From positions 1 to 32,000 of the forward strand of contig JAWCFL010000005.1 in the NCBI GenBank assembly GCA_038858525.1: a stretch of DNA of 32,000 bases, in the 5' to 3' direction. The notes beneath the pieces were generated by a model that saw only the letters and a program-made list of their open reading frames with translations, made no database searches and was not told the origin of the DNA. The translations under genes were made by a program, and so were the position numbers. This stretch comes from Candidatus Jordarchaeales archaeon. Its GTDB lineage: Archaea > Asgardarchaeota > Jordiarchaeia > Jordiarchaeales > Freyrarchaeaceae. Of the stretch, positions 11,223 to 17,236 are shown piece by piece. Positions within the stretch are counted from its first letter, which is position 1. Each line of letters begins with the position of its first letter.

Positions 11223-11573
11223 TTAGGGAGCTTCATTCACGCTTTTATTTATGTACTCTGTTAGTTTCCAGCAGTGGTTTGGCGATATGGGTTGCCCCGC
11301 GCCGCAACGGGAGATTTGTGTACAAGTAAAACAAGGGCATCCTCCTAGCGTATCCCATTTTACTTCGACTTTTTCCTTTGCGTTGGCAAAAAGCCTGTAG
11401 GTCCATCTTCCCTTATATAACTCTTTCATTCTCCGCACAACCCCTCTTTTCTCAAGTTTCATAGCTATTCTTGAACCTTCCCTGCTATTTACCCCCAATT
11501 TTCTCCACAAATCGCTCTGAAGGAGTCCTCTTTCGCCTGCCTCTAATATAATCTGATAGGCTTTCTCTTCCAT
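11223..11573 (-). CDS. tfeB: Transcription factor E beta subunit (archaeal RPC34/RPC6 homologue): wHTH plus Fe-S domain
   Basis: GLLQSDLWRKLG..SREGSRIAMKLEKRG wHTH; C-terminal PCFTC-x5-C-x10-C, matching the RPC6-type four-Cys cluster motif (..ISP..C..L..(Y/W)). Confidence 0.8.
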   Translation of the reverse strand: MEEKAYQIILEAGERGLLQSDLWRKLGVNSREGSRIAMKLEKRGVVRRMKELYKGRWTYRLFANAKEKVEVKWDTLGGCPCFTCTQISRCGAGQPISPNHCWKLTEYINKSVNEAP

Positions 11574-11740: not shown

Positions 11741-13126
11741 TTAAAGGGTAGCTAGCATAAGGATGTCGTTTACATTAGTGCCTGTTGGTCCAGTAATTAT
11801 GAGCCCATCATTTATCTTCTCAAAGAAACTTGTGGCGTCATGTCTTCGCAAGTAATCTTCAGCTCTGATTCCATGCTTTTCTCCTTTCTCTACAGTTTTT
11901 CCATCTACAAGGGCTCCTGCAGCGTAAGAGACACCATCCAAGCCGTCAGTGCCAAAGCTAACCACAAAAACGTTTTTTAATCCTGATATTTTTAGGGCTG
12001 CACTTAAAGCAAGCTCCTGATTTCTCCCACCAATCCCAGCATTCTCACTTATGGTTACCGTCGTTTCGCCACCCATCACGATTAAAGCAGGTCTTTGAAG
12101 CGGCTCTTGATTTAACGCGACGCTTTTAATTATCCCCGCCGCCAAGCAGCCGACTTCCCTCGCCTCGCCTTCCATGTGTGTAGTTAGGATAAGTGAGTGC
12201 ACCCCTCTTTTGTTAGCTTCATTGGCCACTGCAGTGCACGCCCCCCTATTCGTCGCCACAAGAATATTCTGAACCCTTTTGAAAACTGGGTCGCCAGGCT
12301 TCAATGTCTCCTCAACTCCTCCTTCCGCCCCCCTGATAAGCCTCTCTCTAACTCGGCTTCCACATTTATCCCATACTCCATATGTCTTCAGAACATTTAT
12401 GGCATCCGAAAAGGTTGTTGGGTCCGGCGCTGTTGGCCCTGAAGCCACGTCCTCTAGCCTGTCACCTACAACATCGGACACTATTAGACTTATGACACGT
12501 GCAGGATAAGCCATTTTTGCTAGCAGTCCACCTTTAACCTTTGAAAGATGTCTTCTAACAACGTTGATCTTTCCTATGTCCGCTCCGCTCTTGAGGAGGG
12601 CGGCTGTAACTTCTTGAATGTCTTGAAGTTCTACACCATCGGCTGGGAGAGTTAGCATAGCTGAGCCGCCACCCGAAATCAAACATATAACGAGGTCATC
12701 TTTTCCTGCTTCCTCCAGCAGTCCAACAACCGCTTCTGCTCCCCTAATGTTCTCTTCACTTGGGACAGGATGTGCAGCCTCAAAAAGTCGAATAAATCTC
12801 GTGCTGAACATGTTTGAAGTACCCTTTTGTATGCAGACAGCGCCATCAACTATTAATTCTCCTAAGATCTCCTCTAAGGCTTCTGCCATAGCGCCACTCG
12901 CCTTACCGGCTCCTACAACATAAATGTTCTCGACGTTTCGCAGAGGTATGCGCTCACTAAATACAGTTAAGCATTCATCATTAAGCTTCACAGACTTCCT
13001 AATGGCGTCTCTCGGGTCGGAAACGCTTATGGCAAGCTCCACTAGGTCCAGGAGCAAGCTTCGCTTATCCCCCTCCTCATCTTCCAAGAGCTTTTCACGA
13101 TTCTTCACGATAATTCTTACCGCCAT
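11741..13126 (-). CDS. gck: Glycerate 2-kinase (GckA/TtuD, MOFRL family)
   Basis: VVGAGKAS, AAHPVP, LISGGGSA, RRHLSKVKGGLLA, SDVVGD, ASGPT, GGETTV, GGRNQEL, GTDGLDG, TGPTGTNVND. Confidence 0.93.
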   Translation of the reverse strand: MAVRIIVKNREKLLEDEEGDKRSLLLDLVELAISVSDPRDAIRKSVKLNDECLTVFSERIPLRNVENIYVVGAGKASGAMAEALEEILGELIVDGAVCIQKGTSNMFSTRFIRLFEAAHPVPSEENIRGAEAVVGLLEEAGKDDLVICLISGGGSAMLTLPADGVELQDIQEVTAALLKSGADIGKINVVRRHLSKVKGGLLAKMAYPARVISLIVSDVVGDRLEDVASGPTAPDPTTFSDAINVLKTYGVWDKCGSRVRERLIRGAEGGVEETLKPGDPVFKRVQNILVATNRGACTAVANEANKRGVHSLILTTHMEGEAREVGCLAAGIIKSVALNQEPLQRPALIVMGGETTVTISENAGIGGRNQELALSAALKISGLKNVFVVSFGTDGLDGVSYAAGALVDGKTVEKGEKHGIRAEDYLRRHDATSFFEKINDGLIITGPTGTNVNDILMLATL

Positions 13127-13137
13127 TTATTCTCCCT

Positions 13138-14538
13138 CTAAAATATTAGTGAGACCTCCTCAAGCGCCCTCAGAACCCGCCTTCCCCTCTGTGTCAATTT
13201 GAAGTACTTTCTCCTTCCCCTATAATATTCCTCGATGAGTCCCCTCTCCTGAAGCTCTCCTAGATGCTGGTAAACTGCCTGAATCGAGAGACGCTTGCCG
13301 ATAGACTTCCAAATTTCGTAACCGTACGACTCGCCGATCTCTAAAAATCTCAGTATTTCGAACTTTGTCTTAAAACCCCCCCTAGACTTCACCCCCCTTC
13401 TTCCACCATCTGCCAGCGCGTCTATAATGTACGGGTCCTTCAAGCCGCTTGCCGTGATGAGACAGACCGCAACTTCTGAATGGTCAATAAATCCTTCATC
13501 CTTCATCTTTCTGAGACAGGCAACCGATGCGGCGCTTGCCGGCTCCGAGAATATCCCCTCAGCTTTAGCTAGGAGCTTTTCAGCCTCTATTATCTCCCTG
13601 TCGGTAACCGTGACTATAAAACCGCCACTCTCCTCAACTGCTCGGGCCGCTAGCAAACCGTAGGCGGGCATCAGAGAAACGAGAGGGGACGCTGCTGTTG
13701 CAGGCTTCTCAACTCTTCTAACCCTAACTTTTCCCCCCTCATTGATTAAAGTGGCACATCCATCCGGCTGAACCAGAACCATCCGGGGAATATGATCCAC
13801 CACGCCGAGAGTTAAGCACTCCTTGACGCCCTTCCAAATAGAGTAAGCCGTATTACCTGTTCCTGTAGGGACTATTATCACGTCAACATTCCTGCAAGCC
13901 TCTAAAACTTCATGAGAAATGGTCTTCTGAGCTTCAACAGATAGGGGGTTAAGCTCCGGCGTGGCTTGGTAGTATCCGTCAGCGGCCCTTTCCGCCTCAG
14001 CTATCGCGTCATCTATAACGTCTCCACTTCTCACTATATGGCCGCCGTAAATGTACATTTGAGCCAGCTTACTCACGTTAACGTTTCTTGGAGTTATGAT
14101 CGTGCATTTAATTTTTGCTTTAGCACAGTAAGCAGCAGCTGAGGCACCAAAGTTCCCGTACGAGGCACAAATCAACTTTTTTGCGCCAACGTCAAGGGCG
14201 TTAGAGACAATCAGGGAGGCCGCTCTGTCTCTGTAAGAGTTTGTCGGGTTAGCTGTCTCGTCTTTAAGTAAAACCTTTCCTCCCCCCATCGCCTCGGCAA
14301 GCTCCTTTGCCTCCCTAAGCGGTGTGCCTCCCTCCCCCATGCTCACAATGTTCTCCTCGCTAATCGGAGGAAGGATTGGACGATACCTCCACATGCCACG
14401 CCTGTCGCTGTAAGGTAATTTGATCTCCAAGTAATCATAAACATAGTCAAGTATACCCCCACACTTGTCGCATCTCGCCACAGGCGGAAACGGTTTCTTC
14501 TCGCTTCCGCACAACGTGCACCGTAGGTCAACGTTCAA
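13138..14538 (-). CDS. Threonine-synthase-like (fold-type II PLP) protein with catalytic Lys->Arg, N-terminal Zn ribbon and C-terminal winged-helix domain; putative transcriptional regulator
   Basis: CTLC...CDKC; MWRYR, SMGEGGTPL, KDETANPTNSYRDR, EPASAA, SGLKD; PadR/ArsR-like tail (ILRFL..GESYGYEIWK...VYQHLGELQERGLI...RKYFKLT.RG); likely TTG start at 14538 after GAGGGGG (ORF track starts at 14559). Confidence 0.85.
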   Translation of the reverse strand: MNVDLRCTLCGSEKKPFPPVARCDKCGGILDYVYDYLEIKLPYSDRRGMWRYRPILPPISEENIVSMGEGGTPLREAKELAEAMGGGKVLLKDETANPTNSYRDRAASLIVSNALDVGAKKLICASYGNFGASAAAYCAKAKIKCTIITPRNVNVSKLAQMYIYGGHIVRSGDVIDDAIAEAERAADGYYQATPELNPLSVEAQKTISHEVLEACRNVDVIIVPTGTGNTAYSIWKGVKECLTLGVVDHIPRMVLVQPDGCATLINEGGKVRVRRVEKPATAASPLVSLMPAYGLLAARAVEESGGFIVTVTDREIIEAEKLLAKAEGIFSEPASAASVACLRKMKDEGFIDHSEVAVCLITASGLKDPYIIDALADGGRRGVKSRGGFKTKFEILRFLEIGESYGYEIWKSIGKRLSIQAVYQHLGELQERGLIEEYYRGRRKYFKLTQRGRRVLRALEEVSLIF

Positions 14539-14612
14539 CTTAATCCCCCTCGCACACAACTTTATTAGGAGTTCGAGTTAACATAAAGGTTGCTTTAGCG
14601 CAGGTGATCCGT

Positions 14613-15149
14613 GTGAAAGCCACTTTAGCAAGGCAAGTTTCACGCTTACTATTTCAACTGGAAGAGCAGGACATTCAACTTATCATACTGAAGTCCACGC
14701 CAAGGCTTGATCTAGGGGGGGATGAAGCCATAGGTCCCTTTAATGAGGGCGAAGTGGTCACGCTTCCAGCTTGGCAGGCGCTTCATTTGGTTAAAGCTGG
14801 ACTAGCTAAATTCCGGAACGATGAACCTATCAACCTAGCTGAGCTTTACGATTGCCTTTGGAAAGAAGAGCGCCAAGCAGCACTACAACCTCTCCCGAAA
14901 AACTTCCTCCTCCGCCTAAGGTTCTTCATCGAAGCTTCTCCTGACGATGAAAAGAAGAAAATATCTTCAGTATTTAGGGATCTCATGTGTCGAAGACTAG
15001 AGAAAGTAGTTAAAGCAGCACTCAGGGCGAGGCAAAACATGAAAGCAACTGAAAACATGCTCCCCGAGGAAAAAGTGCTTTACTCTGAGCTCGCATCAAA
15101 CATAAACGAGTGGCTAAGCGTGTTGCATAAGTTTTTAAACATAGAGTGA
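14613..15149 (+). CDS. gins23: GINS complex subunit, Gins23 (Psf2/Psf3-type, B-A domain order)
   Basis: N-terminal GPF..G.V.LP.W.A..L B-domain, then helical A-domain (LQPLPKNF, RRLEKVV, LPEEKVLY); directly upstream of mcm; likely GTG start at 14613 after GGTGA (ORF track starts at 14604). Confidence 0.8.
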   Translation: MKATLARQVSRLLFQLEEQDIQLIILKSTPRLDLGGDEAIGPFNEGEVVTLPAWQALHLVKAGLAKFRNDEPINLAELYDCLWKEERQAALQPLPKNFLLRLRFFIEASPDDEKKKISSVFRDLMCRRLEKVVKAALRARQNMKATENMLPEEKVLYSELASNINEWLSVLHKFLNIE

Positions 15150-17236
15150 CCTTCTTCAATCAAGGAAAGGTGCTCGTCATGCAGTTAAACCCCCAAGCTA
15201 GGTTCGAAGCTTTTTTAAGAGAGTACCGTTCAGCTCTGGGAACCCCCACATATATAGAAAAGATAAAGCAGTTAACCGTGAGCGGCTCCAGAAGCCTTAT
15301 AGTCGACTTCAATAACCTAGTCGCATTCGACCCGGAGCTAGCCCGGATGACCCTGGAAAACCCTGACCGCTGCCTTCCAGCTGCAAATCGAGCACTCAAA
15401 GAGATTCTGGAAGAAATGGATTCGGAATACTTGGACAAAGTCGAGAGAGTGTACGTTAGATTTTCAAACTTCCCTGAAAAGTACTACGTTCCTCTAAGAA
15501 AACTTAGGGCAGAACATATAGGGAAACTAATAGTGGTTAATGGAATTCTCGTGAGAGCAACCGAAGTAAAACCCCGCCTCACCGAAGCCATCTTTAGGTG
15601 CCGCAGGTGCGGGGAGCTGATGTCCATCCCCCAAGAGGAAAGAGTGCTCGTTACGCCCGTAGAATGCACGAACCTTAACTGCAGGCGTAAGGGGCCATTC
15701 GACCTTGTAGTAGAAGAGTCAACTTTTATTGACTGGCAGAAAATAAGGATGCAGGAGAAGCCGGAGGATCTCCCGCCAGGCCAGCTACCGAGGGGTATAG
15801 ACGCCATACTCACAGATGACATAGTCGATGTTGCCCGGCCCGGGGACAGAGTTACTCTAATTGGGATTCTCAGACCTGTCCCTGAAAGCCTCGTGGGGAA
15901 GCGGGCGAAGCTCGTAACCTTCAACACCATACTAGAAATTAACAACATAGAGGTTGTAGGAACAGAAGCAGAAAAGCTTGAGATAAGTGAAGAAGACGAG
16001 CAAAAAATAAAGCAACTATCCCAGGACCCATACGTGACGCAGAAAATTATTCGTTCTATAGCCCCAAGCATCTATGGTTACGAGCAGATCAAGGAGGCTA
16101 TAGCTCTCCTTCTCTTCGGAGGAGTACCCAAAGAGATGCCCGACAAGCACAGGATCCGCGGAGACATAAACGTGCTACTTCTCGGAGATCCAGGAGTAGG
16201 AAAATCACAGATACTGCAGTACGTGGCTAGGATAGCTCCCAGAGGGCTCTACACTTCAGGGAGAGGCGCCACAGCAGCAGGTTTAACTGCTGCAGTAATG
16301 AAAGACCCTGACAGCGGAACAATGCTTCTCGAAGCCGGGGCTCTTGTCTTAGCAGACCAGGGTGTTGCGTGTATCGACGAGATGGACAAGATGCGCGAGC
16401 AGGACCGCGTCGCCCTGCATGAAGCCATGGAGAGCGGCATGCTATCAATAGCTAAAGGTGGGATAGTGGCGACGCTTAACGCTAGAACATCCATTCTAGC
16501 TGCGGCAAACCCGGCTTTGGGACGTTACAACCCATACAGGCCTCCCTCAGAGAATTTCAGTCTACCGCCAACCATACTTTCAAGGTTTGACCTTATCTTC
16601 GTGATGATAGACAAACCTGCTAGAGAGCATGACGAGAAAATGGCTGACCACATACTTCACCTTCACCGTGAATACTCTAGCGAGGAGCCGCCACCAATAC
16701 CTCCCGATTTACTGAGAAAGTACATTGCTTATGCTAGAAAAAACATTAGGCCGCGTCTTTTGCCTGATGCTGTGGAAAAGCTACGCGCCTTCTACCTCGA
16801 AATGAGAAGCAAGGGGGAGCAACCCGATGCCCCAGTTCCTATCACGGCGAGGCAGCTTGAAGCACTGGTAAGGCTGGCGGAGGCTAGGGCGAAAATGGCT
16901 CTGAGAAATGAAGTCACAGCTGAAGACGCTGAGGCAGTCATCAGATTGATGAAAGCATCTTTACAACAAATCGGACGTGACATAGAATCAGGCCTCTTCG
17001 ATATAGATACAATATACCTCGGTAGCCCGAAAAGCCAACGTGACAAGATGCAGGTTATCCTCGACATAATTAGCGGCTTAGAAGCGGAACTAGGTGGACC
17101 AGTGCCTGTTGAACGAATAATAAGTGAGGCGGCAGCGGAGAACATAGACAGGAAGTTCGTTGAGAAAGCATTAAACAGGTTCCTAAGCGATGGCCTACTC
17201 TTTGAGCCAAAGCAAGGATACGTGAAACATGCGTAA
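15146..17236 (+). CDS. mcm: MCM replicative helicase, no intein
   Basis: CRRC...CTNLNC Zn finger, QEKPEDLPPGQLPR, GDPGVGKS Walker A, CIDEMDKM Walker B, SRFD Arg finger, ITARQLEALVRL; alternative ATG start at 15179. Confidence 0.98.
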   Translation: MTFFNQGKVLVMQLNPQARFEAFLREYRSALGTPTYIEKIKQLTVSGSRSLIVDFNNLVAFDPELARMTLENPDRCLPAANRALKEILEEMDSEYLDKVERVYVRFSNFPEKYYVPLRKLRAEHIGKLIVVNGILVRATEVKPRLTEAIFRCRRCGELMSIPQEERVLVTPVECTNLNCRRKGPFDLVVEESTFIDWQKIRMQEKPEDLPPGQLPRGIDAILTDDIVDVARPGDRVTLIGILRPVPESLVGKRAKLVTFNTILEINNIEVVGTEAEKLEISEEDEQKIKQLSQDPYVTQKIIRSIAPSIYGYEQIKEAIALLLFGGVPKEMPDKHRIRGDINVLLLGDPGVGKSQILQYVARIAPRGLYTSGRGATAAGLTAAVMKDPDSGTMLLEAGALVLADQGVACIDEMDKMREQDRVALHEAMESGMLSIAKGGIVATLNARTSILAAANPALGRYNPYRPPSENFSLPPTILSRFDLIFVMIDKPAREHDEKMADHILHLHREYSSEEPPPIPPDLLRKYIAYARKNIRPRLLPDAVEKLRAFYLEMRSKGEQPDAPVPITARQLEALVRLAEARAKMALRNEVTAEDAEAVIRLMKASLQQIGRDIESGLFDIDTIYLGSPKSQRDKMQVILDIISGLEAELGGPVPVERIISEAAAENIDRKFVEKALNRFLSDGLLFEPKQGYVKHA

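Follow-up and report, generated by a model that had tools for sequence, protein, structure and literature searches.

Pyridoxal 5'-phosphate (PLP) is reactive and toxic in excess, and its level is therefore tightly controlled by cells, in bacteria by means of MocR/PdxR regulators. The regulons of bacterial PdxR, which belongs to the MocR subfamily of transcription factors, contain pdxST and pdxU, and the MocR subfamily has been reported to be absent from Archaea (PMC5320631). The vitamin B6 importers of archaea are an acknowledged gap (PMC9997740), and the searchable literature yielded nothing relevant on a fusion of threonine synthase (ThrC) with a PadR domain, no paper describing such a family and no archaeal B6 regulator. 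The window considered here is the whole 32,000-nucleotide stretch at the beginning of contig JAWCFL010000005.1 (assembly GCA_038858525.1) of a Candidatus Jordarchaeales archaeon, and it contains at 13138-14538, on the minus strand, a gene whose product joins a ThrC-like domain to a winged helix. This product is very probably a non-catalytic sensor combined with a DNA-binding regulator. The best overall explanation of its features appears to be a non-catalytic one-component regulator, derived from ThrC, with a PadR output domain and probably sensing vitamin B6, a reading which we consider reasonably likely.

The features of the gene are listed below. Residue numbers K61, T85, Asn87, T88, N154, S155 and R160 are those of Thermus thermophilus ThrC, taken from the alignment to 1UIM; AF2 denotes the AlphaFold2 model and pLDDT its predicted local confidence.

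13138-14538, minus strand: whole gene, ThrC-like pseudoenzyme with PadR winged helix, 466 amino acids (aa), stop codon at 13138-13140.
14461-14520, minus strand: N-terminal zinc ribbon, C7, C10 ... C23, C26, as in archaeal-type ThrC (conservation in orthologues).
13453-14346, minus strand: PALP domain, threonine-synthase-like domain of the fold-type II PLP enzymes, residues 65-362 (Pfam, E 5.9e-66).
14230-14232, minus strand: AGA codon, Arg103 at the position of the Schiff-base Lys, K61 (alignment to 1UIM).
14146-14166, minus strand: ASYGNFG (canonical ASTGNTS), Asn129 kept, T85 changed to Tyr and T88 to Phe (1UIM alignment, 139 fused proteins).
13921-13959, minus strand: PELNPLSVEAQKT (canonical NSVNP.R.EGQKT), N154, S155 and R160 changed to P, E and S (1UIM alignment).
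13849-13869, minus strand: PTGTGNT, glycine-rich loop, G226 and G228 invariant in 139 sequences (orthologue alignment).
13378-13437, minus strand: flexible linker, residues 368-387 (AF2 pLDDT below 50 over 368-387).
13141-13377, minus strand: PadR-type winged helix-turn-helix, residues 388-466 (Pfam PadR and AF2 topology).
13246-13284, minus strand: recognition helix of the PadR domain, about residues 419-431 (within the winged helix).

The open reading frame (ORF) is intact and unbroken. The start at TTG 14538 was preferred over TTG 14559 because a Shine-Dalgarno-like GGGGG run lies 6 nt 5' of it and because the N-termini of the same-genus orthologues, 466-468 aa in length, begin at the equivalent point. 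The initial annotation had used the 473-aa reading from TTG 14559, so that its Arg at residue 110 is residue 103 of the 466-aa protein; the motif NPTNSYRDR with the AGA codon was borne out by translation, and all five of the partly kept ThrC-like motifs that it quoted (GEGGTPL, ASYGNFG, PTGTGNT, EPASAA and SGLKD) were found. The PALP profile matched with 223 bits against a cut-off of 35, which places the domain in the fold-type II superfamily. The closest PDB sequences to this domain are the threonine synthases 2ZSJ, 2D1F and 1UIM, and the best Foldseek matches of the AF2 model, which was built on 120 orthologues and has a mean pLDDT of 88.1, are the threonine synthases 2ZSJ, 6NMX and 1V7C, with TM-scores by target of 0.83-0.85. 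Among the 120 orthologues C23 and C26 of the zinc ribbon are invariant, C7 and C10 are conserved in at least 90%, and the same CxxC...CxxC pattern occurs in the canonical ThrC of this genome. The C-terminal winged helix, described at first as PadR- or ArsR-like, proved to be of the PadR type: residues 395-457 match the Pfam profile with 37.7 bits (E 2.1e-9) against a gathering cut-off of 27, only a weak ArsR/HTH_5 match was obtained (E 0.18), and the model shows the order H-H-H-E-E-H over 388-465 after a disordered segment at 368-387. Residues Y405, G406, Y407, W410, A421, Y423, Q424 and H425 of this domain are invariant in the 120 orthologues.

The Schiff-base motif of the regulator reads N97-P-T-N-S-Y-R103-D-R105. 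The position of K61 is occupied in 139 fused orthologues by R (132), I (3), L (2) and K (2), and is thus non-Lys in 137/139. An exhaustive profile search was made over cluster representatives at 50% identity, and the readable cases were counted for proteins with and without a fused winged helix: 69 of the 71 fused representatives carry a residue other than Lys (R15, L18, I15, V5, T5, M4, F2 and singles), whereas Lys is present in 63 of the 66 unfused ThrC-like representatives, two of the three exceptions looking like fragments or truncated matches. The loss of the lysine is a family trait and not a private mutation. Since the replacing residue varies (R, L, I, V, T, M, F, S, N, A, Y and H were seen across the fused representatives) and is conserved only in being non-Lys, a special catalytic role for Arg103 is argued against. 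A word-index search found more than 700 homologues, and the best 120 of them (46-100% identity) all have the PALP plus PadR architecture; where named, these are called "threonine synthase", and they come from Bathyarchaeia, Freyarchaeota and others, Lokiarchaeota and Baldrarchaeia being added to the range of the family by cluster members. The conservation of the Lys to Arg exchange and the spread of the ThrC-winged helix architecture had been put forward in the initial annotation as checks, and both gave a positive answer.

A few fused proteins retain the lysine, namely P0122 (a 62-member Bathyarchaeota cluster), P0124 (Lokiarchaeota) and the product of locus L030 6977-8395; one of them is carried by genome G017, in which no unfused ThrC-like match was obtained at E below 1e-60. 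Like the rest of the family, these proteins are devoid of T85, T88, S155 and R160; a role as true enzymes was rejected on this account, and judged by their residues they are variants of the sensor. (G numbers denote genomes, G000 being that of the window, L numbers loci, and C numbers contigs of G000.)

The comparison with 1UIM showed the changes K61 to R103, T85 to Y, T88 to F130, N154/S155 to P194/E195 and R160 to S200. In the T. thermophilus enzyme T88, N154, S155 and R160 are the contacts of the O-phosphohomoserine phosphate. Among the 139 fused proteins no Thr occurs at the T88 position (L, M or F in most of them), Glu prevails at the S155 position, and Arg is never found at the R160 position. 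The pocket of the cofactor is retained in the same set: Asn87 (= Asn129) in 137/139, the glycines of the glycine loop in 139/139 and the Thr at N1 in 138/139, and N-P-T-x-S-x-x-D-R is invariant across the fused orthologues. These residues presumably serve, as in ThrC, as the contact of PLP O3' (Asn87), the Thr facing the pyridine N1 and the loop around the PLP phosphate. To judge from the alignment, neither the substrate site nor the catalytic base is left, and the cofactor pocket is under strong selection. The initial list of possible ligands comprised PLP, phosphohomoserine, Thr and Ser; the family-wide replacement of the residues for its phosphate makes phosphohomoserine an unlikely ligand, and the pocket and the gene neighbourhoods favour PLP or another B6 vitamer, a ligand assignment which we regard as probable.

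The G000 assembly (2.09 Mb, 92.7% complete) contains five PALP genes. A canonical 400-aa ThrC with NPTGSFKDR is encoded on contig C25 directly 3' of homoserine dehydrogenase (hom), and this is the separate, intact thrC for which the initial annotation had advised a search. The remaining PALP genes, identified by sequence reading, encode a 308-aa CysK-like protein, TrpB1, followed by a TrpA-like gene, and TrpB2. An unfused ThrC-like match is also present in 15/17 relatives which carry the fused gene. The regulator scores below the curated cut-offs of TIGR00260 (158.4 against 167.1) and of the equivalog NF004170/PRK05638 "threonine synthase" (381.8 against 421), although the 442-position model of the latter spans the whole fused architecture and covers residues 5-460 with E 3.5e-114. 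Four features that define a threonine synthase (EC 4.2.3.1) were examined and all were found wanting, as the Schiff-base Lys and the phosphate contacts are missing, the curated score is too low and the protein is not the sole ThrC of its genome. Two relatives were found above the NF004170 cut-off, L020 6989-8398 of G026 with 457.6 bits and L021 6666-8093 of G014 with 425, both having NPTNSFRDR. Because these proteins carry Arg for Lys, the name attached to NF004170 is probably a wrong label for the family. The view of a catalytically dead ligand-binding domain which controls a DNA-binding domain, as first proposed, is supported by the family-wide loss of the lysine, the thrC elsewhere and the wide occurrence of the architecture.

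The gene neighbourhoods, examined in 19 loci and in four further representatives chosen to be diverse (with L, I, T and V in place of the lysine), point to vitamin B6. A PF07155 S-component of an energy-coupling factor (ECF) transporter adjoins the regulator in 10 of the 19 loci (4 co-directional, 3 convergent, 3 divergent), and since it occurs in three orientations the linkage has outlasted repeated rearrangement. In one of the 19 loci, from a Baldrarchaeia-type genome, pdxS-pdxT lies 43 bp downstream of the regulator. All four further representatives adjoin either pdxS-pdxT or a PF07155 S-component, one of these being a whole ECF operon; pdxST is co-directional in one, of the same lineage as the Baldrarchaeia-type locus, and divergent at 78 bp in another. 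Over all 23 loci a PF07155 S-component adjoins the gene in 12 and pdxST in 3, two of the latter (L028 and L042) being from one lineage. The known B6 S-components PdxU and PdxU2 belong to PF07155 (PMC9997740). The sole PDB match of the neighbouring S-components was 4HZU chain S (E 2e-16 and 2e-15), which is HmpT/PdxU2, and the substrate bound there was identified as pyridoxamine (PMC4860826). The gene pdxS was undetected in 6/7 genomes having an adjacent S-component, and it is present in G000-G004, G006 and G016; as the genomes are related to one another, such counts overstate independence. Taken together, the neighbourhoods make it quite likely that the regulon of the family is B6 supply.

Searching G000 with the neighbouring S-component of G006 returned no match, and the missing importer orthologue fits a B6 prototroph which needs the regulator only for pdxST. 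The only PF07155-type S-component of G000 is encoded at C24:12154-12840 (L036 1411-2097; E 1.9e-10), directly behind a DUF4430 gene. As it is only about 26% identical to the regulator-adjacent S-components of the relatives, it is probably a transporter for something else.

Palindromes of a common type were found before the B6-supply genes. In the Arg subfamily T-W-N-AAG-N6-CTT-N'-W-A lies 20-55 bp before the start of the S-component in L021, L023, L024 (two) and L030 (two), and it is located at the same distance from the ECF S-component in L031; one candidate operator of L030 is TATAAGtttaaaCTTATA. In G000, where the identity of pdxS-pdxT on C10 was confirmed, the 6-6-6 palindrome TTAAAGaaacatCTTTAG occurs at C10:17970-17987 (L035 1425-1442) and ends 35 bp before the ATG of pdxS. 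The corresponding elements of the relatives are TTAAAG...CTTTAA in G003, TTGAAG...CTTCAC in G002 and TTCAAG...CTTGAG in G004, and the third base of the half-site covaries with its partner (N/N') across the four pdxS sites. The background frequency of the palindrome is 1.5% per 170 bp in G000 and 1.6% in the loci of the relatives; 20 matches are present in the 2.09-Mb genome, and only 2 of these are within 150 bp upstream of an ORF, one being that of pdxS. The pdxS site of G000 overlaps a TATA-like element of the archaeal promoter, ATATATTAAAG, which suggests repression by occlusion. The same site overlaps a second palindrome, CATCTTTAgTAAAGATG, and the pdxS element of G002 is a tandem duplicate. 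The L/I subfamily has a different palindrome, AATATATARG-N6-CYTATATATT, between the regulator and its neighbour (L043, L045, L033, L029 and L031), and a site related to it is situated 5' of the regulator-pdxST unit in L042. The operator evidence is suggestive and not decisive, given the shortness of the motif and the part that the pdxS sites themselves had in its refinement; whether pdxST is the target in G000 we regard as evenly balanced.

We infer the binding of a ligand and of DNA, and the direction of the regulation, from sequence features, conservation, gene neighbourhoods and palindromes, and the following course of events may be envisaged. The ThrC-derived domain would bind a B6 vitamer, most likely PLP, non-covalently; without the lysine the binding would be reversible and not confined to the aldehyde form, which suits a sensor of the free vitamer pool. 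Dimerisation would take place through the usual ThrC interface, and the flexible linkers would leave beside the two-fold axis, so that the ligand signal could reach the PadR domains. Occupancy by the ligand would alter the spacing or freedom of the two PadR winged helices on the palindrome TWNAAG-N6-CTTN'WA. The operators would overlap the promoters of B6-supply genes, which in the relatives adjoin the regulator (pdxS-pdxT or an S-component like HmpT/PdxU2); in G000 the likely target would be the pdxS-pdxT operon on C10, acted upon in trans, with repression probably setting in at high B6 supply.

A homodimer was modelled with a score of 0.64 against 0.00 for the best control, the runs agreeing in at least 50% of the contacts and the pLDDT of the partner being at least 84. 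In the calibration of this score the mark was reached by 20/30 proteins solved as one-chain pairs and by 1/23 solved as single chains, and the pass may only reflect likeness to known structures, because ThrC dimers have already been solved. The modelled interface is ThrC-like and includes the pocket-side loops 96-100 and 364-367; at the axis, immediately ahead of the linker, residue 366 faces its counterpart of the other chain. The model and the palindromic form of the candidate operators lend indirect support to sequence-specific DNA binding as a dimer.

The surroundings of the gene in the window contain two further features of concern.

11741-13126, minus strand: gene of the glycerate 2-kinase type (DUF4147 and MOFRL), 11 bp downstream of the regulator, probably co-transcribed.
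14539-14603, no strand assigned: divergent intergenic region to GINS-MCM, 65 bp, with the facing TATA-like blocks CTTTATG and TAATAAAG, conserved within the genus.

The initial annotation placed the regulator at the head of a same-strand run with glycerate kinase, tfeB and leuA/cimA. Co-transcription with glycerate kinase is plausible, the spacing being 11 bp here, -4 bp in G002 and 14 bp in G004; the next two genes, a 116-aa ORF with a winged helix and a Cys-rich part and then leuA/cimA, come after intervals of 167 and 132 bp and probably form transcription units of their own. The 116-aa ORF, the former "tfeB" (11223-11573, minus strand), has a winged-helix-like N-terminus (weak DUF7646, E 5.6e-5) and a C-terminal Cys cluster, GGCPCFTCTQISRCG...HCW, and is kept at the same position in G003, G004 and G006. 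In the order-level relatives glycerate kinase is either on the opposite strand or parted from the regulator by the ECF S-component gene, the gene order of G006, from the same order, being regulator, S-component, glycerate kinase. The operon of regulator and glycerate kinase therefore looks secondary, the S-component between them having been lost in the family of the window. Glycerate kinase is missing in the same-genus locus L026 (G003), where between 5413 and 6977 a 107-aa ORF and a 1-kb gap come after the regulator.

The short divergent promoter shared with GINS-MCM was confirmed: GINS starts 65 bp from the regulator on the opposite strand and is followed by MCM, and the divergent arrangement of MCM-GINS recurs in 9 loci from several families of the phylum (window 14604-17236; L016, L020, L022-L027). 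The ORF of MCM has 696 aa here, 1504 aa in L020 and 1127-1130 aa in L023/L024, and the much greater lengths suggest inteins in the latter loci. No operator-like palindrome was found in 14539-14603, and the pdxST promoter on another contig is the better candidate for a target. The near-palindrome CTAAAGcaacCTTTAT, with a 4-nt spacer, was rejected as an operator, not being conserved within the genus. The conserved blocks of this region resemble two facing TATA boxes, and no sign of autoregulation is apparent from the sequence.

Several explanations have to be weighed against a B6-sensing regulator. If the Lys to Arg exchange were a private mutation, a sequencing error or part of a decaying pseudogene, one base change (AAA to AGA) would suffice, and yet the chance of this is negligible: the frame is intact, the family is under strong purifying selection, the record holds an identical protein in a cluster whose 9 members come from 8 contigs, Arg is found at this position in orthologues at 89%, 84%, 75%, 74% and 70% identity, and the counts in orthologues and representatives refute it. 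An enzyme with altered chemistry, using PLP without an internal aldimine or catalysing another reaction and possibly bifunctional with DNA binding, would account for the retained cofactor pocket and for the database name, some relatives even scoring above the NF004170 cut-off. It is nevertheless very improbable, as the identity of the residue at the catalytic-base position is not conserved, the substrate contacts are lost, a canonical ThrC coexists both in G000 and in the relatives, and the regulator remains under both curated cut-offs.

The descent of the domain from ThrC would also agree with a sensor of a metabolite of the Thr/Ser pathway (O-phosphohomoserine, homoserine, Thr or Ser) which regulates amino-acid or C3 metabolism, e.g. 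glycerate kinase or leuA/cimA; the former gene is found at -4 to 14 bp here and in 2/3 other sequenced genomes of the family of the window, and the latter is on the same strand. Such a sensor is unlikely, since the residues for the phosphate of phosphohomoserine are replaced in every fused protein, the recurrent neighbours are pdxST and PdxU2-like S-components and not Thr/Ser genes, the glycerate kinase operon looks secondary, and the thrC-hom pair of G000 is located elsewhere. The dead ThrC fold might finally be a dimerisation scaffold for the PadR domains of a ligand-independent regulator, which would be in keeping with the conserved ThrC interface of the model and with the varying identity of the residue that replaces Lys. 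This is an unlikely explanation, because a mere scaffold would not need conserved pocket residues, and N-P-T-x-S, D104, R105, N129, G226, G228 and T362, none of which belongs to the interface, are invariant or nearly so down to 46% identity.

A regulator of B6 supply acting through the palindrome has its own difficulties. No B6 gene adjoins the regulator in this window, where the downstream gene is glycerate kinase, and the 14539-14603 region, its own promoter region, is devoid of the TWNAAG-N6-CTTNWA palindrome. The substrate of the neighbouring S-components is assigned by similarity, with only sub-threshold NCBIfam matches (TIGR04002, FolT family, RibU), and neither pdxS nor an adjacent S-component was found in the fused-gene genomes G013, G026 and G029. 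The palindrome is short and degenerate, and looser scans hit 45 and 82 places in G000, the base composition predicting about 22 in the first case; these scans were discarded as too unspecific to define a regulon. The strict 22-nt pattern TAYTNAAG-N6-CTTN'ARTA, which was derived from the pdxS sites of the genus, has a second perfect match in G000 at C9:13789-13810, which is situated inside an 822-aa ORF and was treated as due to chance. Nor can the pdxS sites of the one genus count as independent of one another. A matrix built from the operators of the L/I subfamily found no strong site in G000 and did not pick out pdxS, and operator details therefore appear to differ between the subfamilies. 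In G006 the pdxS palindrome, TATACAA-N8-TTGTATA, was not found near its regulator and ECF S-component genes.

We incline, if only by a little, to the view that the family is the missing vitamin B6 regulator of Archaea, which switches pdxST and an importer of the PdxU2 type and is systematically mis-annotated as threonine synthase. If so, a function without a described regulator in archaea would gain a candidate family which ranges across Asgard archaea, Bathyarchaeia and further lineages, and a testable one, with one protein, one ligand class and one 18-bp operator. It would support the naming of the neighbouring ECF S-components as archaeal B6 importers. It would also correct a widespread annotation, as the "threonine synthase" calls distort the reconstruction of amino-acid pathways in uncultured archaea, Asgard included; from the residues described above, this label of NF004170 is probably wrong for the family.

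With the threonine synthases of Aquifex (2ZSJ) and T. thermophilus (1UIM/1V7C) the regulator has in common the fold, 36-37% identity, the zinc ribbon, the modelled dimer interface and the cofactor-pocket residues, and it differs from them in being without the Schiff-base Lys and the substrate-phosphate contacts and in the addition of the linker and the PadR domain, about 100 residues. PadR proteins are typically small, about 110-180 aa, and bind their ligand between their own helices. The regulator resembles this family (PF03551) in the winged helix, the GY[ED][IL] signature (SYGYEIWK), the C-terminal helix and the palindromic candidate operators, but a 370-residue enzyme-derived domain precedes its winged helix. 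PdxR and the MocR proteins, PdxR being in function the nearest known system, are likewise one-component regulators made of a PLP-enzyme fold and a winged helix, and the genes of their regulon, pdxST and pdxU, flank the present family in archaea. In MocR, however, an N-terminal winged helix of the GntR type is joined to an aminotransferase-like domain of fold-type I, and the PLP lysine is kept, whereas the regulator has a ThrC-like domain of fold-type II, a C-terminal PadR winged helix and no lysine; no GntR or aminotransferase family was detected in it by a Pfam scan at E up to 1. On its domain composition the protein is thus unrelated to PdxR, the likeness being one of convergence and not of membership, and by type it would be an enzyme-derived cofactor-sensing regulator. 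If this is true, a PLP-enzyme fold would have been recruited for cofactor sensing a second time and independently, in this case by deleting the covalent anchor rather than by keeping it.

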